A stretch of 64,000 bases of DNA, taken from assembly GCF_045037415.1 (NCBI RefSeq), contig NZ_CP173438.1. One strand, given 5' to 3'. Source of the stretch: Escherichia coli (GTDB lineage Bacteria; Pseudomonadota; Gammaproteobacteria; Enterobacterales; Enterobacteriaceae). The translations under genes and the position numbers were made by a program. The notes beneath the pieces are model-generated. The model saw nothing but the letters and a program-made list of their open reading frames with translations. It did not search any database and was not told where the DNA came from. Below are positions 1,921 through 21,461 of this stretch, piece by piece. The number at the start of each line of letters is the position of its first letter. Positions within the stretch are counted from its first letter, which is position 1.

Positions 1921-2616
1921 ATGAATTTATTTGAGCGTTTGCTGTATCGCCGTCTTTGCAATGAGCAACCAGTCGATGGTGGAGCAGCTCCGGCTGCGTC
2001 AGAACCGTCAGCGCCTGCAGGTGATAACCCTGCTCCAGTTGGTGATCCATCACAACCGGAAGGTGATAAGCCACAACCTGTTGCTGATGGCGATAAACCT
2101 GCTGATGACAAAAAGCCTGAAAACGATAAGCAGGGTGAAAAAAAGGACGGCGATAAACCAGAGGGTGCGCCTGAGAAGTACGAGTTTCAGGCTGCCGAAG
2201 GCGTAGAGCTGGATACAGAAGCGTTGAAGGAATTCGAGCCGGTGGCGCGAGAACTTAACCTGACCAACGAGCAAGCGCAAAAGCTGGTTGATGCTTATCC
2301 GAAGATTCTGGCAGGTGTTCAGCAGCGCCAGGCAGAAGCCTGGCAGAAAACAACCGAGCAGTGGGCTGCGGATGTAAAAGCTGACAAAGAAATCGGTGGC
2401 GGCAAGTTGATTTCTAACCTTAGCGTCGCACAGCGTGCGCTTGACCAGTTCGGGACACCTGAACTCAAAGAATATCTGAACACCACCGGGCTGGGTAATC
2501 ACCCTGATCTGGTCAAAACGTTCGTGAGAATCGGAAAGGCGATGTCTGAAGATGGCATGGTCACCGGTGGTAATGAAGGCCAGCGTAGTGCGGCCGAAGT
2601 GCTCTATGGCAAATAA
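1921..2616 (+). CDS. Putative scaffolding protein
   Basis: AGGAG RBS then ATG at 1921; acidic Pro/Lys/Asp-rich N-terminus then helical region; position between portal and capsid. Confidence 0.6.
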   Translation: MNLFERLLYRRLCNEQPVDGGAAPAASEPSAPAGDNPAPVGDPSQPEGDKPQPVADGDKPADDKKPENDKQGEKKDGDKPEGAPEKYEFQAAEGVELDTEALKEFEPVARELNLTNEQAQKLVDAYPKILAGVQQRQAEAWQKTTEQWAADVKADKEIGGGKLISNLSVAQRALDQFGTPELKEYLNTTGLGNHPDLVKTFVRIGKAMSEDGMVTGGNEGQRSAAEVLYGK

Positions 2617-2624
2617 GAGAGGAA

Positions 2625-3617
2625 ATGACAATGGCTGTTAAAGGCTTAACTGCGCTAACGCTGGCTGACTGGGGTAAGCGCGTCGATCCAAACGGGAAAG
2701 TCGATAAGATTATCGAGCTTCTCGGTCAAACAAACCCGATCCTTCAGGATATGCCTTTTGTCGAAGGGAACCTTCCTACCGGACACCGAACCACCATTCG
2801 TTCTGGTTTACCTTCAGCTACCTGGCGTTTGCTGAACTATGGCGTACAGCCAAGCAAATCAACCACAGTGCAGGTAACCGATTACGTTGGCATGCTGGAA
2901 ACCTATGCTGAAGTCGATAAGTCACTGGCTGATCTGAACGGTAATACTGCCGAATTCCGCCTGTCTGAAGACCGCGCATTTATTGAAGCGATGAATCAGC
3001 AGATGGCGCAGACACTGTTTTATGGTGATTCCAGCGTTAACCCTCAGCAGTTTATGGGACTGTCCTCCCGCTATTCCAGCCTGTCTGCGGGTAATGCTCA
3101 GAACATCATTGATGCTGGTGGCACGAGTACAGATAACACCTCAATCTGGTTAGTGGTGTGGGGCGAAAACACCGTGCATGGCATCTTCCCGAAAGGGCAG
3201 AAGGCTGGCATCCAGATGGAAGATAAAGGCCAGGTGACACTGGAAGATGCGAATGGCGGCAAGTACGAAGGCTACCGTACCCATTACAAATGGGACAACG
3301 GACTTGCTCTGCGTGACTGGCGTTATGTTGTTCGCATTGCAAACATCGATGTCAGCAATCTTTCAGAACCTTCCTCTGCCGCAAATATTGCGAAGTTGAT
3401 GGTTAAAGCACTGCATCGCATTCCAAATCGTGGCATGGGTCGCCCGGTGTTCTACATGAACCGCACTGTAGGCCAGGCTCTTGATCTGCAATCTCTGGAG
3501 AAAACATCTCTGGCGATCAGCGTAAAAGAGACAGAAGGCGAGTGGTGGACTTCATTCCGTGGTGTACCAATCCGTGAAACTGATGCGCTTCTGGAAACAG
3601 AAGCCCGCGTGGTGTAA
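2625..3617 (+). CDS. Major capsid protein (about 330 aa)
   Basis: Position after scaffold; size typical of HK97-fold capsid proteins; ATG at 2631 has the better RBS spacing; stem-loop immediately downstream. Confidence 0.7.
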   Translation: MTMAVKGLTALTLADWGKRVDPNGKVDKIIELLGQTNPILQDMPFVEGNLPTGHRTTIRSGLPSATWRLLNYGVQPSKSTTVQVTDYVGMLETYAEVDKSLADLNGNTAEFRLSEDRAFIEAMNQQMAQTLFYGDSSVNPQQFMGLSSRYSSLSAGNAQNIIDAGGTSTDNTSIWLVVWGENTVHGIFPKGQKAGIQMEDKGQVTLEDANGGKYEGYRTHYKWDNGLALRDWRYVVRIANIDVSNLSEPSSAANIAKLMVKALHRIPNRGMGRPVFYMNRTVGQALDLQSLEKTSLAISVKETEGEWWTSFRGVPIRETDALLETEARVV

Positions 3618-3668
3618 CGCCTGTTATTAACCTGTGGGTCGTAACAGACCCACTAATGGAGAAAGAAG

Positions 3669-4502: not shown

Positions 4503-4826
4503 ATGGAACTCGTAAACCTCAAAACCGGCACTGACAGCTACCAGGATGAGAGCGGAGAAACCAGAACTCGCGATGAATACCCGTGGGGGCTGTGCATCAC
4601 GCTGAATAACGACACATTGAATAAGCTGAAGGCGCAACCTCAGGGCGTCGGAACAGAAGTGATGATAACTGCAAAGGCTGTTATCCGAGGCCTGTCTGCC
4701 AGAGAAACTGACGATGGCGTTAATCGCAGCGCCGATCTGCAGATCACTGATATGGCGATCGCTCCTGTTTCCGGGGATGTAGAAAAATCAGCGGCTGAAA
4801 CTCTGTACGGTAACGGAGGTGAGTGA
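4503..4826 (+). CDS. Small virion protein, possible capsid decoration protein
   Basis: CAGGAG RBS then ATG at 4503; size and position match a small capsid-associated protein in epsilon15-type layouts (inference). Confidence 0.45.
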   Translation: MELVNLKTGTDSYQDESGETRTRDEYPWGLCITLNNDTLNKLKAQPQGVGTEVMITAKAVIRGLSARETDDGVNRSADLQITDMAIAPVSGDVEKSAAETLYGNGGE

Positions 4827-5431
4827 TGGCCTCTGTAGTAGAGATCTGTAATCGTGCGCTGTCCAATATTGGCAACAGCCGCAGCATTAACAGCCTGACG
4901 GAAGCCAGCAAGGAAGCGGGGGAATGTTCGCTGCACTTTGAGGCCTGCCGTGATGCTGTGCTTTCTGATTTTGACTGGAACTTTGCTACCAAACGCGTGG
5001 CGCTTGCAGATACGAGCAATCCACCGCCTGACTGGGAATATGCGTACCAGTACCCGTCAGATTGTCTGCGCATTACTGAAATTATGCTTCCTGGTGTACG
5101 CAATCCAACAGCAGCAATGCGCGTTCAGTACGAAGTTGGTGCAGACACCAACGGAACAGGAAAATTGATCTACACAGACCAGCCGCAGGCATGGCTCAAG
5201 TATGTCTCTCGCGTTTCAGATGTAAACATGTTTGATGCCATTTTTATGGAGGCGCTGGCCTGGCGTCTTGCGGCAGCCATTAACATGGCGCTGACTGGGA
5301 ATGCGGATCTCGGTACATTTGCTCTCAATATGTACAATCGCGTGATTCTTAGTGCTGGCTCGCATAGCCAGAATGAATCACAGGAACCACAGCCACCGGT
5401 TGACGAGTTTACCATTGCGAGGTTGTCCTGA
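4826..5431 (+). CDS. Tail tubular protein A-like adaptor (about 200 aa)
   Basis: GGAGG RBS; size and position before a roughly 820-aa protein as in T7 gp11/gp12. Confidence 0.55.
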   Translation: MASVVEICNRALSNIGNSRSINSLTEASKEAGECSLHFEACRDAVLSDFDWNFATKRVALADTSNPPPDWEYAYQYPSDCLRITEIMLPGVRNPTAAMRVQYEVGADTNGTGKLIYTDQPQAWLKYVSRVSDVNMFDAIFMEALAWRLAAAINMALTGNADLGTFALNMYNRVILSAGSHSQNESQEPQPPVDEFTIARLS

Positions 5432-7902
5432 TGGCTATCAGTTGGATCCAGCCCAGCTTTGCCGGTGGTGAGATTGGACCGTCGTTGTACGGGCGTATTG
5501 ACATGGCGAAGTACCAGGTGGCATTGCGCAAGTGCGATAACTTTATCGTGCGGCAGTATGGCGGCGTTGAGAATCGACCAGGTACGCGTTTTGTCGGTGC
5601 CGCCAAATACCCAAATCGGAAATGCCGCCTGATCCCGTTCCAGTTCTCGACGGTTCAGACCTATGCTCTGGAGTTCGGACACCAGTACATGCGCGTTATC
5701 AAAGATGGTGCGTTGGTGCTGAACAGCAGCAATGTTATTTATGAAATTGCCACGCCATATACTGAAGCCGATCTGTTCCGAATTAAATTCACGCAAAGCG
5801 CCGACGTGCTTACGCTTGTTCATCCGGCATACCCGCCGAAAGAGTTGCGTCGCTATGCGCATGACAACTGGCAACTGGTTGATGTGGTAACGAAGAACGG
5901 ACCATTTGAAGATATCAATATTGACGAGTCAGTGACGGTTTATGCCAGCGCCAGCACCGGGACAATTACGTTAACGGCAAGCGCCTCTATTTTTGGCGCG
6001 GAGCAGGTAGGCAAATTGTTCTATCTGGAACAGCCTGCAGTGGATTCTGTGCCGGTATGGGAAACCAGTAAGAGTACGTCAATTGGCGATATTCGCCGTG
6101 CAGACAGTAACTACTATCGCGCCGTTACAGTAGGCAAAACAGGCACTTTGCGCCCTTCGCATACAGAAGGCACATCATGGGATGGCTGGGGCGGATCCGG
6201 TGATGATGATACCGGCATTGAGTGGGAGTATCTGCACAGTGGTTTTGGCATTGCCCGTATCTCTGCTGCAAATGGAACTACTGCAACTGCCGAGGTGATT
6301 TCCTATATCCCTTCGCAGGTAGTTGGCGAGGATAATGCCAGCTATAAATGGGCTAAATATGCCTGGAACAGTGTTAATGGTTATCCTGGCACTGTTGTTT
6401 ATTATCAACAACGTCTTTACTTCGCCGCATCGACTGCGTTTCCTCAGACTATCTGGGCCAGCCGTACCGGGGATTATAAGGATTTTGGCAAAAGCAATCC
6501 TACGCAGGATGACGACAGAATTATCTACACCTATGCCGGGCGTCAGGTTAATGAGATCCGCCACCTGATTGATGTTGGTTCGCTGGTGGCGCTGACTTCC
6601 GGAGGTGAGTACGTCATCACTGGCGACCAGAACAAAGTGCTTACCCCATCATCATTTGCATTCAGCTCTCAGGGATCAAATGGCTCGAGCAATGTCCCAC
6701 CAATTGCCGTGGCGAATATTGCTCTGTTCGTCCAAGAGAAAGGCAGTGTTGTCCGTGATCTGGCCTACTCATTCGATGTTGACGGCTATCAGGGGAACGA
6801 CCTGACCATCCTTGCCAATCATCTTTTTCAGAAGCACAGCATTGTTGACTGGTGCTTCTCGATAGTCCCTTACTCCAGCGCCTTCTGCATTCGTGATGAC
6901 GGTAAATTACTGGTGATGACCTATTTGCGTGATCAGCAGGTTTTTGCATGGGCACCACAATCCAGTACCGGAAAATATGAAAGCACATGCAGTATCAGCG
7001 AAGGAAATGAAGATGCGGTGTATTTCGTCGTTAACCGAACCGTTAACGGGCAAACAGTGAGATACATCGAGCGACTGTCCAGCCGTTTATTTACCAGCGA
7101 TGAAGATGCTTTCTTTGTTGATTCTGGCCTTAGCTATGATGGAAGAAATACGTCTGACAGAACGATGATCATCACTGGTGGTTCTGGCGAATGGGATTAC
7201 CGCGAGGAATATACAATCAGTGTTTCTGGTGGTGCGTACTTCACCAGTAGTGATATCGGTGCCCAACTACAGTTCCCTTATACCGGAACTGATCCTGATA
7301 CTGGCGATGAAGTGTCAAAAGAATTACGTTGCGACATTATTTCTGTAACCAGCAATACCGCTGTAGTGGTTCGTGCTAACAGGAACGTCCCGCCATCCCT
7401 CAGGAATGTGGCCACCACGAACTGGCAGATGGCGCGCCGGACATTTGGAGGCCTGTCTCATCTTGAAGGCCAGACCGTAAACATTCTCTCTGATGCGAAC
7501 GTGGAACCACAGAAAGTGGTTTCCGGAGGTGCCGTCACGCTGGAATCTCCGGGGGCTGTAGTGCACATCGGCCTGCCAATAACTGCTGAATTCGAAACAC
7601 TGGATATCAACATTAACGGACAGGAAACGCTGCTGGACAAAAAACAGGTGATCCCCTCCGTTACTCTGGTTGTGAATGCCAGTCGCGGCATCTGGGCGAC
7701 TACGCCCGGCGGTAAATGGTACGAATATCCACAGCGTGAATTCGAGTTCTACGATGATCCTGTTGATGATGCTACCGGAAAAGTAGAAGTGAAACTGGAC
7801 AGTAACTGGGGCAAAAACGGACGTGTAAAAATCCGTCAGCTTGATCCGTTGCCGCTGTCTGTTCTTGCCGTTATTCCTCGCCTTACTGTTGGGGGATTCT
7901 GA
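5431..7902 (+). CDS. Tail tubular protein B-like nozzle protein (823 aa)
   Basis: ATGA overlap with upstream gene; size and position equivalent to T7 gp12. Confidence 0.55.
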   Translation: MAISWIQPSFAGGEIGPSLYGRIDMAKYQVALRKCDNFIVRQYGGVENRPGTRFVGAAKYPNRKCRLIPFQFSTVQTYALEFGHQYMRVIKDGALVLNSSNVIYEIATPYTEADLFRIKFTQSADVLTLVHPAYPPKELRRYAHDNWQLVDVVTKNGPFEDINIDESVTVYASASTGTITLTASASIFGAEQVGKLFYLEQPAVDSVPVWETSKSTSIGDIRRADSNYYRAVTVGKTGTLRPSHTEGTSWDGWGGSGDDDTGIEWEYLHSGFGIARISAANGTTATAEVISYIPSQVVGEDNASYKWAKYAWNSVNGYPGTVVYYQQRLYFAASTAFPQTIWASRTGDYKDFGKSNPTQDDDRIIYTYAGRQVNEIRHLIDVGSLVALTSGGEYVITGDQNKVLTPSSFAFSSQGSNGSSNVPPIAVANIALFVQEKGSVVRDLAYSFDVDGYQGNDLTILANHLFQKHSIVDWCFSIVPYSSAFCIRDDGKLLVMTYLRDQQVFAWAPQSSTGKYESTCSISEGNEDAVYFVVNRTVNGQTVRYIERLSSRLFTSDEDAFFVDSGLSYDGRNTSDRTMIITGGSGEWDYREEYTISVSGGAYFTSSDIGAQLQFPYTGTDPDTGDEVSKELRCDIISVTSNTAVVVRANRNVPPSLRNVATTNWQMARRTFGGLSHLEGQTVNILSDANVEPQKVVSGGAVTLESPGAVVHIGLPITAEFETLDININGQETLLDKKQVIPSVTLVVNASRGIWATTPGGKWYEYPQREFEFYDDPVDDATGKVEVKLDSNWGKNGRVKIRQLDPLPLSVLAVIPRLTVGGF

Positions 7903-13235: not shown

Positions 13236-15710
13236 ATGAGACAGGAATGTATACAAGCGGTCCAGCAGGCGGCGCAGCGCACGTTAACGGCGCGAGAAAT
13301 ACAGAACATTGAAGACCGCATTTATCGAAATATGCGCTCCATTGCTCGTGATGACCCGATGTCGTGGAGACAACTTTCCGAATCAGAGCGGCTATATCGT
13401 GCAGCACAATTGGCATCTGAAGAATTACAGCGAGAAGCGGCATTAAAGAAACGTCGTGTGGCCCTCACTATAGCCGCACGTCAGAGATTGGATAAATTTA
13501 TCAATAGCTATCAAGGGGCTGATGGGAAACTTGGCGCTCTTAACCGTACTATTGCTTTTAATGCAGACGGTAAATCGAATTTCCTCTCTGTTGAGTCCAG
13601 AACAAAAGCCACTCGTGATTATGCATTGAGTCAATTGCAAGAGGCATTTGAAGCAGTTGATCCTCGCTTTTTTGGCCTGTTTGAAGATGAAGCTGGCGTG
13701 CGTGACCTGGTATATGAAATGCGAGGGCAAAATACTGGCAATGCTAAAGCAAGAAAAGGTGCTAAGGCGTGGAGAGAAGTTACAGAGCTGCTGCGCCGCC
13801 GGTTTAATGATGCTGGTGGGGACATTGGCTATCTCGAAAACTGGGGGATCCCTCAACATCATTCTATGGAAAAGGTTGGGGCGGTATCAAAGGATAAGTG
13901 GGTTGGCGATGTTATAGGTAAGCTGGATCGCAAATATTATACCCGAGCCGATGGACAACTGATGAACGATGCCGAGTTGTCTGCATTTCTTGGAGAGGCT
14001 TATAACACGATAGCTACTGGTGGGCTGAATAAGCTTACTGATACCGGAATGCGAATTTCCGGCGCACGTGCTAACCGTGGTAATGCATCACGACAGATAC
14101 ATTTCAAAAATGCAGATTCCTATCTCCAATATCAACAACTTTATGGTGATCGCTCTCTATGGGAAATCATGGTCGGTCACCTGGAAGGTATCAGTAAAGA
14201 TATTGCTCTGGTGGAAACATATGGTCCAAACCCCGATCATGTTTTCCGCTCCCTTCTTGATCAGGTGAAGGCAGAAACGGCAACAGCTAACCCGAGTAAA
14301 ACCGGTAAAGTCGAGCGGCTGGCGAACAACACAGAGAATCTGTACAACTTTATTTCCGGAAAGACACAGCCTGTAGCGAATCCGCACATCGCGCGATGGT
14401 CTGACAATATCCGCAACTGGCTGGTTGCCAGCAGACTCGGATCCGCGTTGCTGTCATCGTTCTCTGATCTTGGAACCATGTATCTGTCTGCGAAGGTTAC
14501 CAACCTTCCAATGAACCAGTTATTCCGCAACCAGCTTGAAGCTATGGACCCAACGAACCGTACAGAACTTGCGCGGGCGCGCCGCGCTGGTCTGGCGATG
14601 GAATCTCTACTTGGCAGCGTTAACCGCTGGGCGATGGATAATATGGGGCCGTCTGTGTCTCGTTGGGCTGCAACGGCGGTAATGCGTGCCAGTGGGCTTA
14701 CAGCATGGTCAGATGCGCACAAGCGCGCCTATGGCGTAACCATGATGGGAAGCCTGGGAGAAGTAGTGTCACGGACACCAGACCTTCGTAGCCTCGATGA
14801 TTCTGATTTTCGTATCCTGAAAAGCAAAGGGATTACTGACACAGACTGGAGCGTATGGAAGCTGGCGCAACAGGAGGACTGGGGGAACGGCAATAATACG
14901 ATGCTGACACCGGAAAGCATTATGCGTATCCCTGATTCAGCAGTTAAACATCTTGGTGAGCCTGAACGCGTGAAATTTGAGGCAATGCGTAAACTGCTCG
15001 GTGCCGTAACTGAAGAAGTTGATATGGCTGTTATTACACCGGGAGCACGTGAGCAACTGATAACCGGTTCTGGTATTCAGCGTGGAACATGGAAAGGTGA
15101 ATTAACGAGAAGTGTTTTCCTGTTTAAATCGTTCCCTATCTCGGTGGTTATGCGTCACTGGTCACGCGCTATGGGTATGCCGTCTGCTGGTGGGCGTGCG
15201 GCATATATTGCGACGTTTATTGCCAGTACGACCATTCTTGGCGCTTTGTCGCAGCAACTTAACGACCTTGCGTCTGGTCGTAATCCTCGCGAGATGACAG
15301 GAGAAGATGCTGCTAAATTTTGGCTTGGTGCTCTACTGAAAGGTGGTGGTCTTGGCCTTTACGGTGACTTTTTATTGTCAGATCACACTAGGTACGGAAG
15401 CGGCGCGCTGGCGTCGATGCTTGGCCCGGTAGCTGGTCTGGTTGATGACGTAGTGAAGATTGCTCAGGGCATACCGTTAAATGCTGTGGAAGGGAAGAGT
15501 GAGCAGACTGGTGGTGATCTGGTGAAGCTGGGGAAAGGTTTGATGCCTGGTGCGAATCTCTGGTACTTGAAGGCGGCTCTCGATCACATGATCTTTAACC
15601 AGATGCAGGAGTATTTTTCACCAGGCTATTTGCGTAAAATGGAGCAACGTTCGAAGAAAGAGTTTAACCAGACATACTGGTGGCGACCACAGGATGTCAC
15701 TCCGCAATAA
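13236..15710 (+). CDS. Large internal virion (core/ejection) protein, 824 aa
   Basis: Third large protein of the internal-protein block. Confidence 0.6.
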   Translation: MRQECIQAVQQAAQRTLTAREIQNIEDRIYRNMRSIARDDPMSWRQLSESERLYRAAQLASEELQREAALKKRRVALTIAARQRLDKFINSYQGADGKLGALNRTIAFNADGKSNFLSVESRTKATRDYALSQLQEAFEAVDPRFFGLFEDEAGVRDLVYEMRGQNTGNAKARKGAKAWREVTELLRRRFNDAGGDIGYLENWGIPQHHSMEKVGAVSKDKWVGDVIGKLDRKYYTRADGQLMNDAELSAFLGEAYNTIATGGLNKLTDTGMRISGARANRGNASRQIHFKNADSYLQYQQLYGDRSLWEIMVGHLEGISKDIALVETYGPNPDHVFRSLLDQVKAETATANPSKTGKVERLANNTENLYNFISGKTQPVANPHIARWSDNIRNWLVASRLGSALLSSFSDLGTMYLSAKVTNLPMNQLFRNQLEAMDPTNRTELARARRAGLAMESLLGSVNRWAMDNMGPSVSRWAATAVMRASGLTAWSDAHKRAYGVTMMGSLGEVVSRTPDLRSLDDSDFRILKSKGITDTDWSVWKLAQQEDWGNGNNTMLTPESIMRIPDSAVKHLGEPERVKFEAMRKLLGAVTEEVDMAVITPGAREQLITGSGIQRGTWKGELTRSVFLFKSFPISVVMRHWSRAMGMPSAGGRAAYIATFIASTTILGALSQQLNDLASGRNPREMTGEDAAKFWLGALLKGGGLGLYGDFLLSDHTRYGSGALASMLGPVAGLVDDVVKIAQGIPLNAVEGKSEQTGGDLVKLGKGLMPGANLWYLKAALDHMIFNQMQEYFSPGYLRKMEQRSKKEFNQTYWWRPQDVTPQ

Positions 15711-15721
15711 AAGGAGATATG

Positions 15722-15844
15722 ATGGTTCAAATAACTTTTATTGTACTAATATGTGCAGCGTTTTTATGCTATTCATACATTTTGATAAAAATGGGTTTCA
15801 ATTGGAATCTCTGTTGCGTGCAGCGGCATGGTTCGGCTTTGTAG
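15722..15844 (+). CDS. Possible small hydrophobic protein (40 aa) in AT-rich moron
   Basis: AAGGAG RBS at 15711-15716 with 5-nt spacer to ATG; hydrophobic product; a competing 62-aa ORF (15694-15882) uses another frame. Confidence 0.3.
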   Translation: MVQITFIVLICAAFLCYSYILIKMGFNWNLCCVQRHGSAL

Positions 15845-15929
15845 TATTAGGAATTGTATTGTTCGGAAGAATAATAAAATAACTAGTTAATTTGTGGATT
15901 GGTGCTGTTTTTCCATGATAGGGGTAATT

Positions 15930-16310
15930 ATGAGAAAAGTATTTTTGATTTTTGGATTTATGCTTCTCGTTGGATGCCAGTCAGCTGCACAGTTTGAAAG
16001 AAATATGCTTACGTGGCGCGGGCAGAGTATAGACGCAATGGTTCAGCAGTGGGGGTATCCTCAGGGAGAGCTTACATCTCCAGATGGAAACAGAGTGTAT
16101 GTTTACTCAAGCTCTGGTAGTTATAACGTACCACAAACCACAACGTATAATACTACGTCTAATCTAATTGGTAATACTATATATTCAAACACATACGCAA
16201 CAACTGATGGCGGTTATACACTCCATTTCAGTTGCTCTGTTTACGTTGAGTTTGGTGCTGATAAGATTATTAAAAATGTTACATGGCGCGGTAATAATTG
16301 CGTTGCGTGA
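15930..16310 (+). CDS. Lipoprotein (moron), 126 aa
   Basis: Signal peptide MRKVFLIFGFMLLVGC with lipobox LLVGC; AT-rich context; terminator directly downstream. Confidence 0.7.
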   Translation: MRKVFLIFGFMLLVGCQSAAQFERNMLTWRGQSIDAMVQQWGYPQGELTSPDGNRVYVYSSSGSYNVPQTTTYNTTSNLIGNTIYSNTYATTDGGYTLHFSCSVYVEFGADKIIKNVTWRGNNCVA

Positions 16311-16319
16311 CATGTCACA

Positions 16320-16343
16320 GGCCGCTTTCGCGGCCTTGTTTTT
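16320..16343 (+). terminator. Rho-independent terminator after lipoprotein gene
   Basis: GGCCGC-TTTC-GCGGCC hairpin followed by TTGTTTTT. Confidence 0.7.
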
Positions 16344-16503
16344 AACGAATGCCACCGCCACCCGGGCGGGAATCCGCAGAACGCCCACCGCAGCGGGAGC
16401 CGTCAGCAGCAGTGTCGCTGTCGTGCTGACAACGACCGGCAAAGGCCTGAGTTGAAGCTACCAGAGACAACAAAACGAACAGTGCAGCAAATGCTTTTTT
16501 CAT
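16342..16503 (-). CDS. Possible small secreted peptide (53 aa)
   Basis: Signal-peptide-like N-terminus MKKAFAALFVLLSLVASTQAFA; GC-rich low-complexity mature part with two Cys; weak RBS. Confidence 0.3.
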   Translation of the reverse strand: MKKAFAALFVLLSLVASTQAFAGRCQHDSDTAADGSRCGGRSADSRPGGGGIR

Positions 16504-16575
16504 TGTGAAATTTCCATCTATAAGCCACCTCAATGTGGCGTCAATGAGTGTAGCACTGACTTTTGTTTCGTCCAC

Positions 16576-16597
16576 AAAAAAGCCCGCGCTGCGGGCT
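16576..16597 (-). terminator. Rho-independent terminator of the reverse cassette
   Basis: GCCCGC-GCT-GCGGGC hairpin followed by a U-run on the minus strand, directly after the 16602 stop. Confidence 0.7.
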
Positions 16598-16601
16598 TCT
16601 A

Positions 16602-17234
16602 TTAATGCAGTTTATCTTTGCTTATAACCAGTAGTCTGTGGGTATGCACATCTTTATCACTGCCCCAACAGAAATCAGCCCACTGGCTATAGAAATCATC
16701 CCATGATGTCATGAAGCTAAGAGGTCTATCTTCTTCAGAGCCATCTGAAACGTATACATTATATCCTGGGGTGTTTATAGCCCAAGAAATCATTCTTTCC
16801 CAGAATCTTCTCCCATCGATTGTTTGTTGCTCATCAGATACAACGATCGCATATTGCTCTAGGAAGAACTGAAAAAAAATCTGAGGCAAACCATGAACAG
16901 CACGGTCATGAATAACATTAGGCGTACGCCATACCATGATCTGCGTACATGTTCTTTTGGCTTCGACGATATCTTCCCGAAAGATTAACTTAACCGCATA
17001 CACCGTTTCTGGAGTATCGCTGGTAGTAATCATTCTGTAATGATCGCCATTACAAGATTTTACAAGGCGATAACCATAAGGTGTTGTGAATCCCGGAAGA
17101 ACGAAATCAACCACACCTTTCGCTAAGTAGCTTTCGGTGTGACTAGTGTTCTTCTCAGACATGTTCAGTTTTCTATCGAAATCTGCTTCTGGGATAATGT
17201 ATGGCATCGCTTTTCTTGTTGTATTTGTTCTCAT
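16602..17234 (-). CDS. Uncharacterised cargo protein, 210 aa
   Basis: Strong RBS GGGAGG 5 nt before ATG; own sigma70-like promoter and operator upstream; no family recognised; AT-rich. Confidence 0.75.
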   Translation of the reverse strand: MRTNTTRKAMPYIIPEADFDRKLNMSEKNTSHTESYLAKGVVDFVLPGFTTPYGYRLVKSCNGDHYRMITTSDTPETVYAVKLIFREDIVEAKRTCTQIMVWRTPNVIHDRAVHGLPQIFFQFFLEQYAIVVSDEQQTIDGRRFWERMISWAINTPGYNVYVSDGSEEDRPLSFMTSWDDFYSQWADFCWGSDKDVHTHRLLVISKDKLH

Positions 17235-17293
17235 TTCGTCCTCCCATGTTTGGCTACAGGACGCGTTTTGAAGGGAAGATTAAAAATGCTTTC

Positions 17294-17308
17294 TTACCCT
17301 TGAGGTAA
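17294..17308. promoter_or_regulatory. Operator-like palindrome TTACC-N5-GGTAA (copy 1) overlapping the start region of the 16602-17234 gene
   Basis: Perfect 5-bp inverted repeat with 5-bp spacer; abuts the predicted -10. Confidence 0.5.
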
Positions 17309-17336
17309 TAGTACGCTATTCACCCCCAGTCTGCAA
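17308..17336 (-). promoter_or_regulatory. Sigma70-like promoter for the 210-aa gene
   Basis: Minus-strand TTGCAG-N17-TACTAT, about 75 nt upstream of the ATG. Confidence 0.45.
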
Positions 17337-17380
17337 TCTGTACAGAATTATTTAAAGGCACATCCCTGTGCCGCCGCCCG

Positions 17381-18037
17381 TCAGAAGAACCCTGCCTTGT
17401 CGTTGATGTACTCCGCGTGCGTCTGGATATCACGCAGGCATTTGCTCACACCAACGATGTAGCAGAACATGGTGGTCAGCTCCGCCGCCGCGCCCGATAC
17501 GTCGTGCCCGTCGTCCTGTAACTGGTTCAGCAGATTCATCAGCAGTGAGTTCTCCGTCAGGCCGAGAACACCAGACGGCGAGTGAATCAGGCTGCGGTAG
17601 CCGGGCTTCAGTGGGGCACTGTATTCTTTTTTGTCTTCCAGCTTGATCGCCTCCATAATGGCGGGCATGAAGCCTGACAAGACCTTCTCCACTTTTGTTT
17701 CTTGTTGTCTTAAACGTTTCTCGCATTCAATGAAGTAGCGTCGCACCTGGCGACCTTTTTCGTTACGCTCGACCATCGCCAGCTCTTTGGCTGTATCAAG
17801 GGTGAGGTGGTACTCTTTGCGGTTGTGGCCGCCTCTACCAGATGTTTGCTTTCCCAAATTGGAAAGCAAAATATAGTCTTGATTTTCAATGAATTCGTAT
17901 TCTGATATGCGATTTGTAATCCATGCTGCAAACACCTTTTTAACACCTAAAAAAGCGTGCAGATCGCGGGCATTACAAAGTAGGGCTGTTTCGTTAGATA
18001 TAGTGCCGTTGAATACGGGGATGAGTTGAGCGTTCAT
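17381..18037 (-). CDS. Antirepressor-like protein: AntA-type N-terminal domain plus C-terminal domain paralogous to the small SOS-controlled protein
   Basis: GGAG RBS; N-terminal motif [27 protein letters not shown] typical of AntA/AntB antirepressor domains; C-terminal 70 aa about 40% identical to the 18357-18614 product. Confidence 0.65.
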
Positions 18038-18196
18038 GATGGCGTCTCCACTTAGCGAATTACATCACCACCGCTGAGAACCAATCAGATGGTGGTGAAC
18101 TGAACGGAGTTGGTCTTACCGGCCTAAGTGGTACCGGCGTCCTTTCGGACCCCCATTCAGCCCACCATAATTCTGGCATGACTGTGCTATACGCAT

Positions 18197-18218
18197 AAAA
18201 AAACCACGTCTGGCGTGG
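18197..18218 (-). terminator. Putative rho-independent terminator between the small SOS-controlled gene and the antirepressor gene
   Basis: CCACG-N5-CGTGG hairpin followed by seven U on the minus strand; short stem. Confidence 0.4.
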
Positions 18219-18308
18219 TATGCGCCACTTAGTAATCCGGGAGAACCAATCCCGGCACTGGATTTTGCCAGTGCCCGATTACTATGGCACAAGAGGAGTG
18301 CGATGTAA

Positions 18309-18327
18309 ATTTACCGCAAAGGTAAAT
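18309..18327. promoter_or_regulatory. Operator-like palindrome ATTTACC-N5-GGTAAAT (copy 2)
   Basis: 7-bp inverted repeat with 5-bp spacer, same core as copies 1 and 3. Confidence 0.45.
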
Positions 18328-18356
18328 ATAAGCACTCCATTTGGTAATTTCAAACC

Positions 18357-18614
18357 TTATCTGGTTTGTTTTCGTAATTGTTCGGCACAATAGTCGAGAT
18401 GTGTTTGCAGATCCTGCATAGACATCTGTGAGCTGGTGACGTAGTTAATCAGTGCAGTCAGTTCGGCAAGTGGGCCATCGACATTAAATCCATCCTTATC
18501 GAGATCCCGGAGTAATTTCATCAAGTGCGATCCCTCCACCAGTGACCTGACGCCTCCCGGCGTGTGAATCCTTTCGGTAAATCCGTCTTCCAGTGGATAG
18601 TGATACTGCTGCAT
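18357..18614 (-). CDS. Small SOS-box-controlled protein (about 85 aa), candidate SOS-inducible antirepressor
   Basis: GGAGAA RBS before ATG at 18614; LexA box 19 nt upstream; homologous to C-terminus of the adjacent AntA-like protein; ORF track extends to 18737 but upstream part covers promoter and operator. Confidence 0.6.
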   Translation of the reverse strand: MQQYHYPLEDGFTERIHTPGGVRSLVEGSHLMKLLRDLDKDGFNVDGPLAELTALINYVTSSQMSMQDLQTHLDYCAEQLRKQTR

Positions 18615-18633
18615 CTTATCTTCTCCATGCAAT

Positions 18634-18653
18634 AACTGTATATTTATACAGTA
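18634..18653. promoter_or_regulatory. LexA (SOS) box
   Basis: AACTGTATATTTATACAGTA matches the E. coli LexA consensus TACTGTATATATATACAGTA at 18 of 20 positions, with CTGT-N8-ACAG intact. Confidence 0.75.
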
Positions 18654-18689
18654 GCAAATAATTTGTTTGCTATCCAGCACGTTTTGCAA

Positions 18690-18706
18690 ATTACCTGAAA
18701 GGTAAT
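18690..18706. promoter_or_regulatory. Operator-like palindrome ATTACC-N5-GGTAAT (copy 3) upstream of the LexA box
   Basis: Perfect 6-bp inverted repeat with 5-bp spacer. Confidence 0.5.
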
Positions 18707-18809
18707 ATCTATTCGTATTTACAGCCTTTCTATCCATATGTGGTTTTCCAGGTAATAGAATAACCAGATATGCGGCGCAACGGGTGCTGCGACTATCTGG
18801 AGATTTAAC

Positions 18810-21461
18810 ATGACGGTTTCAACCGAAGTTGACCACAACGAATACACCGGTAACGGAGCTACGACATCATTTCCGTATACCTTCCGTATTTTCAAAAAAT
18901 CCGACCTGGTTGTTCAGGTGTCTGACCTGAACGGGAACGTAACAGAATTGGTTCTGGATACTGACTACACAGTAACCAATGCTGGAGGATATAATGGCGG
19001 TAATGTAATTCTGTCGAAGGCGTTGGCTAACGGTTATCATATTTCTATATCACGAGAGCTCCCGGTTACGCAGGATACTGATTTGCGTAATCAGGGTAAG
19101 TTCTTCGCTGAGGTACATGAAGACGCGTTCGATAAACTGACAATGCTTATTCAAAAGTGTTTTTCATGGATGAGGTTAGCACTTATAAAACCAAGCATTC
19201 TGGCTAACTATTATGATGCAAAAAATAATAAGATATCAAATCTAGCAAATGCCACTGACAGAAACGATGCTGTCAATAAAGGTTATGTTGATGATCTTTT
19301 TACTGGAGGTGTAACGCCTACATCTAACAGCGCTAAAAACGATATTTTTACAAATCACCAAAGAAAGATTGTAGCTACGATGCCGCTTCTTTTTCCTGAA
19401 TATGATGCGATTATGGCTGCTAACCCGTCAGCAACTTATATGTATCCTCAAGGATTCTGCGTTAGCGAAGATTTGATATACATCACTTATCCATTTGAGC
19501 CTAAACAGACGAATAATGTCGTCGCAGTATTTAACATATCTGGTATTTATCAAGGTTATTTCTATGTTCAGGCTGGCGGCCCAGGCTTCGCTGCTGAAGG
19601 AATCGTGGTTACGTCAGACTATGGCCCCAAAAAAATGTTTGTTGGTCACACAAACGGAATACTGCGTGAATTTAATATGGAGGGGGCATTATACGGAAGC
19701 AATCTGCCTCTTGTACAAAACCATGATGTTGGATTATTCAACCAGTTCAGCTACAGAAGAGGTATATGGCTCGTTGAGCAGAATGCGCCAGAAGTAGGAC
19801 AGAAAATCACAAGAACTGTACTTGCAGTGTTCGACAGTGGTTTCAATCGCCTGTCAACTATAACGCTGCCGTTACATGATGTTGGGTATGTAACTAAAAG
19901 CACCTCACCTTATGCGCCTTATTTCAACAAGCGTCAGGGTATTGCGGTAGGTGATAACTACTTTGTCTGCGGCTATGGCGGCTTCATAGCTGATGGGGCA
20001 GGAAGCGCAGGATATAACGAATATCAGGGCAGCAAAGTTTTTAACCCTGACGGTACAAAGCGAACTGAATCAATGCTTCATCCTCAGGCCATGATGGATT
20101 TAATGAAAGCCGCAGGATTGAACGTCACTCGCATAGAAAATGAAGGCGTTTGTGTTTCTCAGGATGGAAAATCCATTTATTCACTTTACATTCATCAGGA
20201 AAGAACTGGCTCTGAACCTTACAATTCAGGTTTGGTTATTTTCGAAGATTTCTCCACTGATAAAGATGCTATCGATTTTACACCTGCATCCAGGCTTTAC
20301 CGCGGATTTGATATCGATCACGCGAGCATTGGGGTATATCCCCGTAGTGCGAAGGGGATTGTTAACCCTGTAGATGGTACGTTGTTCACTAACATGACTG
20401 AAATTCTTCGCTATATGCAGGAGATGAGTCAGAAGGCATTTAATTTTTACACAGGGACTGTCAGCATTGCTGATATATCTGGCGTGGCAATCCCTTCCAG
20501 CACATATGTTGAAATACTGAATGCGAATAATCAGACTTTTATAGTCAACTATTATTCATCTGATAGTGGCATTAGTTATTTGGTTGCAACTAATCCTTCT
20601 GGTGACTTTGTATTTGTGCGCCAGCGACCGGCACAGTGGGCATCTAACTTAACCATTCAGCAAAACGCAGATCCTGATACAAACCAATTAAACCGCATCA
20701 CTGCATCATCATATGCCGGTGCAACTACAAACTCTCAGAAAATATTGGTCCTTGACCAGCAGGCTACAGCTAGCGCAAATAGCTTGGTATTGGGCGGTAG
20801 TTCTTCTGTGTTTAGGTCTGCCACCACGGTGGATATTGCATGCAACAGCGACCCGACAGCATTGGGAGGAACCATACGCTGGCGGTTTTATGATACAGGT
20901 CTTCGCCCGTTTGCTGACAATACCTATAATTTTGGTCAGGCATCGTTTCGTATTAAAGACGCCTACTTTGCAAATGCCCCAACCGTTTCATCAGATGCCA
21001 CGCTGAAAACCAATCCCGAGGCAATATCAGATTTAAGTGAAATGCTTTCTTCTGATAGAGACAGCATTCTTGATGCCTGGGGCGATATTTCTGTTGTGGC
21101 GTATCGATGGCTCGACGCTATATCCATGAAGGGCGATGGTGCCAGATGGCATTTTGGCGTCATGGCTCAGCAGGTAAGGGATGTATTCTTGGCGCACGGA
21201 ATTGATGGAACCAGATTTGGCCTTCTTTGCTATGACGAGTGGGATGATATTTTTGAGCCGGTAATCGCGACTAAAGAGATTACCGATACGTCTGGTGAGT
21301 TGGTCACCGTCGAATATGACACCGGAGAACAGAGGCTGGTTAAAAAAGCGGGTAGTTCATGGGGTATACGGCCTGACCAGTGCGCTTGGCTTGAGGCTGC
21401 ATATCAGCGCCGTCGATGCGATCGTATTGAAGAGCGACTCGAACTATTGGAATCAAAATAA
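18810..21461 (+). CDS. Tailspike protein with C-terminal intramolecular chaperone (peptidase S74-like) domain, 883 aa
   Basis: RBS CTGGAG; conserved-looking N-terminal virion-anchor region; C-terminal block (RWHFGVMAQQVRDVF...) resembles the self-cleaving chaperone domain of endosialidases and tail fibres. Confidence 0.75.
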   Translation: MTVSTEVDHNEYTGNGATTSFPYTFRIFKKSDLVVQVSDLNGNVTELVLDTDYTVTNAGGYNGGNVILSKALANGYHISISRELPVTQDTDLRNQGKFFAEVHEDAFDKLTMLIQKCFSWMRLALIKPSILANYYDAKNNKISNLANATDRNDAVNKGYVDDLFTGGVTPTSNSAKNDIFTNHQRKIVATMPLLFPEYDAIMAANPSATYMYPQGFCVSEDLIYITYPFEPKQTNNVVAVFNISGIYQGYFYVQAGGPGFAAEGIVVTSDYGPKKMFVGHTNGILREFNMEGALYGSNLPLVQNHDVGLFNQFSYRRGIWLVEQNAPEVGQKITRTVLAVFDSGFNRLSTITLPLHDVGYVTKSTSPYAPYFNKRQGIAVGDNYFVCGYGGFIADGAGSAGYNEYQGSKVFNPDGTKRTESMLHPQAMMDLMKAAGLNVTRIENEGVCVSQDGKSIYSLYIHQERTGSEPYNSGLVIFEDFSTDKDAIDFTPASRLYRGFDIDHASIGVYPRSAKGIVNPVDGTLFTNMTEILRYMQEMSQKAFNFYTGTVSIADISGVAIPSSTYVEILNANNQTFIVNYYSSDSGISYLVATNPSGDFVFVRQRPAQWASNLTIQQNADPDTNQLNRITASSYAGATTNSQKILVLDQQATASANSLVLGGSSSVFRSATTVDIACNSDPTALGGTIRWRFYDTGLRPFADNTYNFGQASFRIKDAYFANAPTVSSDATLKTNPEAISDLSEMLSSDRDSILDAWGDISVVAYRWLDAISMKGDGARWHFGVMAQQVRDVFLAHGIDGTRFGLLCYDEWDDIFEPVIATKEITDTSGELVTVEYDTGEQRLVKKAGSSWGIRPDQCAWLEAAYQRRRCDRIEERLELLESK

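Follow-up and report, generated by a model that had tools for sequence, protein, structure and literature searches.

Genes and features of the locus

In a 64,000-nucleotide (nt) stretch of Escherichia coli DNA (contig NZ_CP173438.1 of RefSeq assembly GCF_045037415.1; hereafter the window, whose positions are used throughout), a block of minus-strand genes is placed between a gp17-like virion gene (13236..15710, plus strand) and the tailspike gene (18810..21461, plus strand) of a prophage. We identify it as the locus through which antirepression, and hence induction, is controlled in this prophage, an epsilon15/phiV10-like member of Uetakevirus inserted at guaA. Read from the tailspike side, it contains the small antirepressor gene ant1 behind a LexA box, an IsrK-like RNA, a C4-type antisense RNA, a second antirepressor gene (ant2), and two putative cargo genes coding for a 210-amino-acid (aa) protein and a 53-aa peptide (Table 1). 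The original prediction for this DNA, made from the letters alone, had described three minus-strand genes between virion genes and tailspike gene; all three were present, but the two RNA genes and a fourth open reading frame (ORF), that of 53 aa, which falls beyond the coordinates given there, had been missed. As it had also stated, each of the three genes has its own ribosome-binding site, a GGAG-type Shine-Dalgarno sequence lying 5–8 nt ahead of the ATG of ant1, ant2, and the 210-aa gene. The terminators that it had placed on both sides of the block were found on the downstream side only (16600-16573 and 16319-16336, the latter with an annotated homologue in epsilon15 and phiV10), whereas the upstream side has none, being a divergent promoter region that also serves the tailspike gene.

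Window positions 1-23400 hold the right-hand part (~23 kb) of the prophage, spanning portal to lysis genes, and positions 23500-64000 are host DNA. The cassette was 99.9% identical to that of the guaA-integrated prophage of E. coli strain 447 and its relatives, and the 2.8-kb region as a whole was similar to phages phiv142-3, TL-2011b, ZX5, and phiV10, with a partial match to epsilon15. Parts of the region were found in 897 of 5,426 complete genomes, 49 of which carried at least 80% of it.

Table 1 Positions of the genes, RNAs, and candidate regulatory sites of the block
Feature	Position	Strand	Details
Rep operator O-ant, divergent region between ant1 and tailspike gene	18690..18706	.	ATTACCTGAAAGGTAAT; exact palindrome ATTACC-N5-GGTAAT
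Candidate ant1 promoter TTGCAA-17-ACAAAT	18689-18661		read by eye
Candidate ant1 promoter TAGCAA-18-TATAAA	18672-18643		read by eye
LexA (SOS) box, just upstream of ant1	18653-18634	-	TACTGTATAAATATACAGTT; 18/20 match to consensus TACTGTATATATATACAGTA
ant1, 85-aa SPC32H-type antirepressor, epsilon15 gp19/phiV10 gp24 homologue	18614..18357	-	PHROG 450
Second candidate promoter TTGAAA-17-TATATT	18353-18325	-	10/12
Rep operator O2, abuts -35 of isrK promoter	18310..18326	.	TTTACCGCAAAGGTAAA; exact palindrome
Candidate promoter P-isrK, TTTACA-17-CATAGT with TG extension	18281..18309	-	9/12 match, TG before -10
IsrK-like RNA (c4 a1/b1 target element and intrinsic terminator)	18287/18274-18197	-	Rfam isrK RF01394
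b1, in IsrK hairpin loop	18251-18241	-	GAUUGGUUCUC
a1	18232-18225	-	CUAAGUGG
C4-type antisense RNA	18172-18088	-	Rfam RF01695; 61.2 bits against a gathering score of 45, E 1.3e-10
C4 a' loop	18131-18124	-	CCACUUAG
C4 b' segment	18116-18110	-	AGACCAA
b2, in ant2 leader just after C4	18086-18076	-	GAUUGGUUCUC
a2, in ant2 leader	18055-18048	-	CUAAGUGG
ant2, 218-aa antirepressor	18037..17381	-	PHROG 377 'anti-repressor Ant'
Weak candidate promoter of 210-aa gene, TTGCAG-17-TACTAT, overlaps O3	17336-17308	-	read by eye
Rep operator O3, overlaps end of weak candidate 210-aa gene promoter	17293..17309	.	CTTACCCTTGAGGTAAT; exact palindrome
210-aa cargo gene	17234..16602	-	PHROG 1349 'unknown function'
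Intrinsic terminator after 210-aa gene	16600-16573	-	stem GAAGCCCGC-AGC-GCGGGCUUC, then U6; dG -15.3, z -3.1
53-aa ORF with signal peptide, last minus-strand gene of block	16503..16342	-	PHROG 14503 'membrane associated protein'
GC-rich bidirectional hairpin ending the plus-strand late operon, just downstream of block	16319..16336	.	7 pairs, 6 GC

A LexA-controlled antirepressor and the operators of its target

The product of ant1 matched chain E ('Anti-repressor protein') of PDB entry 5D50 at E 4.1e-47, the two proteins sharing 73 of 83 aligned residues (~88% identity); this entry is the Rep-Ant complex of the Salmonella phage SPC32H, an epsilon15-like podophage. Ant1 was also 100% identical to an unnamed 85-aa ORF of phage ZX5. 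The LexA box upstream of ant1, rightly called near-consensus in the original prediction, differs from the 20-nt consensus at two positions, is the sole match in the 64 kb at up to three mismatches (0.00 expected), and is kept at the same place in seven relatives, namely epsilon15, phiV10, phiv142-3, TL-2011b, HEMP4, Tyrion, and Phi05_1387. The epsilon15 gene, gp19, shares both the LexA box and the upstream palindrome, and stands alone between gp18 and the tailspike gene. Judged from these matches, the small 85-aa protein is a known, structurally solved, LexA-controlled antirepressor of the SPC32H type. According to PMC7380047, which cites Kim & Ryu 2013, self-cleavage of LexA in the SOS response leads to production of the antirepressor, which inhibits the repressor by protein-protein contact, and PMC9638917 describes how the DNA-binding tetramer of Rep is broken by the Ant tetramer, which binds two Rep dimers. 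The gene content and direct LexA input, which had been put forward as differences from the P22 locus, are thus not new, since LexA control of SPC32H Ant and its binding to Rep are published and the complex is solved.

The looser pattern CTGT-N8-ACAG occurred four times in the window (0.77 expected); the sites at 3632, 52958, and 61887 have GC-rich spacers, none lies within three mismatches of the 20-nt consensus, and they were set aside as chance occurrences. A longer ORF of 126 aa starting at 18737 was rejected as the small gene; the 85-aa form is also the one called by PGAP.

The repressor counterpart was identified in the strain-447 prophage. Its Rep, a protein of 194 aa that is 100% identical to phiV10 p40, matched SPC32H Rep (5D50_A) at E 4e-42, and a Pfam search found two helix-turn-helix (HTH) domains and no Peptidase_S24 domain. 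By its domain composition, a Rep of this build cannot autocleave, and since the S24 autocleavage domain is missing, an antirepressor would be needed for its removal.

The palindrome TTACC-N5-GGTAA, which the original prediction had noted as repeated at the promoters of the cassette, occurred in three exact copies in the window, all inside the block, against 0.04 expected (O-ant, O2, and O3). In the GenBank record of epsilon15, the site homologous to O-ant, upstream of gp19, is labelled 'protein_bind, repressor, lysogeny', and the motif is so annotated seven times in all. Exact copies numbered 11 in epsilon15, 8 in phiV10, and 10 in the strain-447 prophage; among them are sites on both sides of rep and before the terminase and head genes. 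On the basis of this annotation and distribution, we assign the palindrome as the Rep operator. Operator-like sites with one or two mismatches elsewhere in the window lay in host DNA or were unsupported, and were set aside. O2 is the centre of a longer hairpin (18338-18292, minus strand; dG -18.7, z -6.1), whose phiV10 counterpart (3490-3545 of the phiV10 locus) has arms that form a perfect 18-bp palindrome; this hairpin might also terminate or attenuate transcription between ant1 and isrK.

A second antirepressor behind IsrK-like and C4 RNAs

The second antirepressor gene, ant2, had been described as an AntA-like gene whose C-terminal part is a paralogue of the small protein, and both halves of this description held. 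Residues 22-92 of Ant2 form a Pfam AntA domain (E 8e-26), and residues 137-210 (74 residues) were 42% identical to Ant1 (E 6e-16); the C-terminal domain (residues ~137-213) also matched 5D50_E at E 8e-14. The C-terminal ~80 residues were nearly identical to the corresponding proteins of ZX5 (ORF4), phiV10, and TL-2011b, in which the N-terminal domain is Bro-N instead of AntA. Because the C-terminal domain is near-identical while the N-terminal domain varies between AntA and Bro-N, the conserved C-terminal domain is likely the effector part of Ant2. Overexpression of ZX5 ORF4 reduced lysogens from 1e9 to 1e6 and lowered repressor transcription by 75%, in a paper that mentions neither the small Ant nor the RNAs (PMC9782041). 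The second antirepressor of phiV10 is split into ORFs p23 and p22 (2561-3240 of the phiV10 locus) by a short deletion in the C-terminal Ant-like domain, and because of this split it is probably inactive in the type phage.

Between ant1 and ant2, Rfam models identified two RNAs. The isrK model scored 60.9 bits against a gathering score of 50; the intrinsic terminator of the element lies at 18219-18203 and is followed by a U run, and the start predicted from P-isrK coincides with the 5' end of the model. The isrK and c4-a1b1 models overlap and describe one element, in effect an a1/b1 decoy of the C4 system joined to a terminator; in the Gifsy-1 paper, IsrK is compared with P4 SeqA (PMC4825925). 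The C4 RNA folded into the expected long stem with two inner hairpins, with a minimum free energy of -41.2 kcal/mol (z -5.5). Its a' loop is an exact 8-nt complement of both a1 and a2, and the 11-mer GAUUGGUUCUC, present as b1 and b2, pairs with the C4 segment AGACCAA. The a2 site overlaps the Shine-Dalgarno GGAG of ant2 (18049-18046), 10 nt ahead of the ATG at 18037.

The isrK and C4 matches exceeded the Rfam gathering scores in this prophage and in nine relatives (phiV10, TL-2011b, phiv142-3, HEMP4, Tyrion, two Klebsiella phages, Phi05_1387, and a Yersinia phage), and an Rfam search did not find the pair in epsilon15. Across the 10 loci, four a-types and three b-types were present in combinatorially reassorted form, with matching sequence in all three partners at every locus; the window and phiv142-3 carry a-I/b-I, and phiV10, ZX5, and TL-2011b carry a-II/b-II. 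This three-way covariation of a1/a'/a2 and b1/b'/b2 across the 10 loci is strong comparative evidence that the C4 pairing is functional. Both b1 and b2 are one U longer here than their phiv142-3 counterparts (GAUUGGUCUC), although the two phages have the same C4 RNA; such a parallel change at sites 165 nt apart may reflect gene conversion, or selection keeping b1 equal to b2.

A short ORF (MRIAQSCQNYGGLNGGPKGRRYHLGR; 18116-18196, minus strand) lies right after the IsrK terminator and overlaps C4, in a position resembling that of Gifsy-1 orf45. It is the only ORF after this terminator. As an icd- or orf45-like coupled leader it was rejected: it has 26 codons and no Shine-Dalgarno sequence, stops 79 nt short of the ant2 ATG, and differs in length in phiV10.

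The cargo slot downstream of ant2

The contents of the slot that follows ant2 differ between relatives: epsilon15 and phiV10 have nothing there, TL-2011b has a toxin pair of the YafO family, phiv142-3 has two small ORFs, and ZX5 has two overlapping ORFs. In the window it is occupied by the 210-aa gene and the 53-aa ORF, the latter conserved in phiv142-3 (Orf11) and TL-2011b (gp43). At 41-42% GC, the 210-aa gene is poorer in GC than the flanking phage genes (about 46-56%). The overlap of its weak candidate promoter with the third Rep operator would place it under Rep repression, unlike a classical lysogenic-conversion gene.

In agreement with the original prediction of a protein with no recognisable family, searches of Pfam, NCBIfam, and PADLOC gave no family for the 210-aa protein, PHROG 1349 being its only assignment; Pfam was likewise without a match on the query together with 36 homologues, and no PDB sequence matched at E <= 10. 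The nearest predicted folds were GNAT acyltransferases, as a weak match. Neither the GNAT Q/R-x-x-G-x-G/A CoA-binding motif nor a sequence-profile match to that family was found in it; a conserved Q137-T-x-x-G141-R-R at the beta4-alpha3 junction is like the CoA motif in place, not in pattern. The 'DUF4123' label of the top AFDB hit was dropped, the family having no Pfam match.

Homologues of ~210 aa occur across Enterobacterales (63 clusters at E <= 0.001), where they are named only 'phage protein' or 'hypothetical', and by Foldseek the family reaches Vibrio, Aeromonas, and Pseudomonas. Among isolated phages there were three records only, none functionally named. In unrelated phages, homologues stand alone as insertions within late-gene clusters. 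Those of Serratia siphophages neighbour P22-type Arc-sar-Ant modules and are oriented like the flanking tail genes, and those of Citrobacter P1-like phage-plasmids are found in reverse orientation between tail genes and sit.

Comparison with characterized antirepression systems

The block resembles the Rep/Ant/LexA system of SPC32H (Kim & Ryu 2013, Kim et al. 2016; PDB 5D50 and 5D4Z) in its small Ant, its LexA box, its map position divergent from the tailspike gene, its two-HTH Rep without a cleavage domain (as known from the strain-447 prophage), and its operator palindrome as annotated in epsilon15. On every feature compared, at the level of sequence, it is a member of the SPC32H-type system. 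Only the small ant gene is present at this place in epsilon15 and, by genome similarity, in SPC32H, whereas this E. coli lineage adds isrK, C4, ant2, and cargo; its rep is located outside the window.

For the RNA parts, the locus was compared with immI of P1/P7 (c4-icd-ant) and with isrK-orf45-anrP of the Salmonella prophage Gifsy-1. In P1/P7, C4 pairs at the ribosome-binding site so that no antirepressor is made, and the specificity of C4 sets heteroimmunity (PMC12197685, PMC7313666). The present locus is alike in having a C4 RNA with a' and b' complementary to an upstream a1/b1 pair and a downstream a2/b2 pair, in placing the downstream target over the ribosome-binding site before the antirepressor gene, and in the variation of C4 types between phages with the same primary repressor. 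It differs in that an icd-like leader is missing and a2 lies directly on the ant2 Shine-Dalgarno sequence, in that the promoter is under Rep rather than C1, and in that the antirepressor is an AntA::SPC32H-Ant-like fusion with an SOS-controlled paralogue upstream. In Gifsy-1, where the mechanism was established by experiment (Hershko-Shalev et al. 2016, PMC4825925), IsrK with its own terminator likewise stands upstream of an antirepressor gene, a read-through transcript carries a C4-like stable RNA (STnc1160) followed by the antirepressor gene, and translation is controlled by RNA pairing. Unlike Gifsy-1, the present locus has no coupled orf45-type ORF and no adjacent AntQ antiterminator target, is situated in a podophage late region, and has a LexA-controlled ant gene ahead. 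By these sequence features, the block belongs to the P1 immI/Gifsy-1 isrK class for its RNA parts, and it lacks the coupled leader ORF that both of those loci have.

ORF4 of vB_EcoP_ZX5 (ZX5), an E. coli Uetakevirus (PMC9782041), occupies the same slot downstream of isrK/C4, has a nearly identical C-terminal part (~80 residues), and comes from a genome with the same Rep and the same small Ant, but its N-terminal domain is Bro-N versus AntA here, and its C4 type is a-II/b-II versus a-I/b-I here. Tum of coliphage 186 and GfoA/GfhA of the Gifsy prophages (PMC3121763) are alike in logic, each being a small SOS-induced protein that inactivates a non-cleavable repressor; they are single antirepressors with no C4/IsrK module, and the likeness drawn here is one of logic.

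Proposed circuit and alternative readings

Taken together, our data favor a reading in which SOS induction acts through LexA and Ant1 to remove Rep, with an RNA-gated Ant2 and a variable cargo slot added to this core; as a whole we give this reading a probability of about 0.75. By homology, a non-cleavable Rep with two HTH domains would hold promoters through TTACC-N5-GGTAA operators, three of them in the block, and RecA would be unable to bring about its cleavage. LexA would keep ant1 off, as homology and the LexA box suggest; upon DNA damage, LexA cleavage would allow Ant1 to be made, and Ant1 would bind Rep and break its DNA-binding tetramer as in SPC32H, so that operator-bearing promoters would be derepressed and the prophage induced. 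RNA homology and covariation point to a further layer, in which the promoter beside the Rep operator would give a short IsrK-like RNA with a1/b1 decoy sites, and read-through of the IsrK terminator, together with read-through from ant1, would yield the C4 antisense RNA and the ant2 mRNA. Pairing of a' with a2 on the ant2 Shine-Dalgarno sequence, and of b' with b2, would then block Ant2 translation, which surplus IsrK-like RNA could release by titrating C4 or refolding the leader. Ant2 may target the same Rep, providing a second, RNA-gated input that strengthens derepression, and C4 specificity may also set a second immunity type against related superinfecting phages. The putative GNAT-like 210-aa protein and the 53-aa secreted peptide would fill the variable cargo slot downstream of ant2, and the 210-aa gene, seemingly Rep-operated, would stay silent in the lysogen and be expressed once derepressed. 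The SOS-triggered antirepressor module that the original prediction had offered as one option is thus retained, with the correction that the SOS-wired gene is the small ant1 and not primarily the AntA-like gene, and none of the proteins turned out to be an ordinary structural protein of epsilon15-like phages.

Several findings weigh against this reading. All promoter assignments are consensus matches, some of them weak. One of the candidate -35 elements of ant1 lies directly against a Rep operator, full occupancy of which would oppose SOS firing of this gene. The rep gene lies outside the window, and Rep is taken from near-identical prophages. The ZX5 experiment was an overexpression of a protein with a different N-terminal domain. 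On the RNA side, the c4-a1b1 match overlapping isrK reached 36.2 bits, below the gathering score of 46.7, the extra U in b1 and b2 introduces a 1-nt bulge into the b pairing, and the locus has no icd/orf45-like coupled leader ORF, so that the P1 and Gifsy-1 mechanisms are not transferable in detail.

One alternative holds that the isrK-C4-ant2 half is mainly a superinfection-immunity determinant of the immI heteroimmunity type and not an SOS amplifier; it is compatible with the circuit proposed above, and we rate it at somewhat less than an even chance. The resident C4 would silence ant2 of incoming phages of the same C4 type, and Ant2, acting at infection, would enable a phage whose C4 type differs to prevail over a resident that has the same Rep. 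Rep is identical in the strain-447 prophage and phiV10 and, according to the ZX5 paper, in ZX5, phiV10, and phiv142-3 (PMC9782041), and Ant1 is identical in the window and ZX5, yet the C4 a/b types differ among these phages; the combinatorial a/b reassortment in the 10 loci is also the heteroimmunity pattern of P1/P7 (PMC12197685). On the other hand, the homologous Gifsy-1 module drives prophage induction, not exclusion (PMC4825925), and with a Rep operator at the isrK promoter, little C4 is expected in a stably repressed lysogen unless repression is leaky. Since C4 types differ between phages whose Rep and Ant1 are the same, an additional role of the module as an immI-type second immunity, like that of P1 versus P7, is probable by analogy. 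A reading that we consider improbable takes the cargo end (the 210-aa protein, possibly with the 53-aa peptide) for a defence, anti-defence, or toxin module that merely lies beside the antirepressor genes. The toxin pair in the same slot of TL-2011b and the other small gene pairs of ZX5 and phiv142-3 would fit such a module, as would the low GC of the 210-aa gene, its recurrence as a stand-alone insert in Serratia siphophages and P1-like phage-plasmids, and its predicted similarity to the GNAT fold, which is that of some toxins and modifying enzymes; however, no antitoxin-like gene adjoins it, its family is annotated without any function, it matched nothing in PADLOC, NCBIfam, or Pfam, and PADLOC-DB 2.0 returned 0 families for all four block proteins. 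The defence or anti-defence island that had been suggested for the whole cassette thus found no support, and this option is left for the two cargo genes.

The map position between ejection or core genes and the tailspike gene, which the original prediction had correctly likened to immI of P22 (mnt-arc-ant, sar), together with an antirepressor under layered negative control including antisense RNA, and the true Arc-sar-Ant module beside this cassette in TL-2011b, might suggest a P22-type immI with Mnt/Arc, sar RNA, and P22 Ant. The block has no Arc- or Mnt-like ORF, an Rfam search at E <= 1 found no sar in 15500-19500 while detecting it in TL-2011b and two Serratia loci, and Pfam identified only AntA and no P22_AR_N/C domain; control here would be exerted by LexA, Rep, and C4 instead. 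These ORF, sar, and domain searches refute membership in the P22 type, which we regard as extremely improbable.

Returning to the SOS/LexA-Ant1-Rep circuit, one elaboration of it is a two-stage relay with dual input, in which LexA-released Ant1 would remove Rep, the Rep-operated IsrK/C4 module would thereby open, and the RNA balance would license Ant2, which would both latch the commitment and determine immI-type specificity between phages that share a Rep; the same derepression would turn on a GNAT-like enzyme of a new family with an early lytic role, such as host takeover or anti-defence through acylation. In this full form the relay is speculative and, in our estimate, unlikely. The components have each already been described or annotated, and their combination is already contained in the phiV10 sequence (GenBank DQ126339); we found no paper treating both antirepressors and both RNAs as one circuit. 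What remains novel is the relay reading and the GNAT-like cargo protein, and no new principle is established.

Functions can thereby be assigned to genes that RefSeq still labels 'hypothetical' in many E. coli genomes. The E. coli Uetakevirus prophages appear to join two known induction controls in one locus, SOS/LexA control of the small Ant and a C4/IsrK gate on the second Ant, and the reassortment of C4 specificities among same-repressor phages may help to predict prophage inducibility and cross-immunity. Phages of the phiV10 type serve as O157 reporter phages.

Neighbouring genes and further observations

The rep gene, the remaining operators, and a phage tRNA-Arg are located upstream of the window, and yfgI and yfgH come after the prophage at guaA. 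The TL-2011b locus (1280-2464 and 4570-5480) has, besides its YafO-family pair, a complete P22-type Arc-sar-Ant module adjoining the cassette and ~0.9 kb of additional DNA that separates the small ant gene from isrK. In the window, an ORF situated between the cassette and the gp17-like virion gene (15930-16310, plus strand; 37-39% GC) encodes a 126-aa lipoprotein-like protein (MRKVFLIFGFMLLVGC...; PHROG 3716, unknown function). Neither epsilon15 nor phiV10 has this ORF, which is thus probably a further cargo gene.

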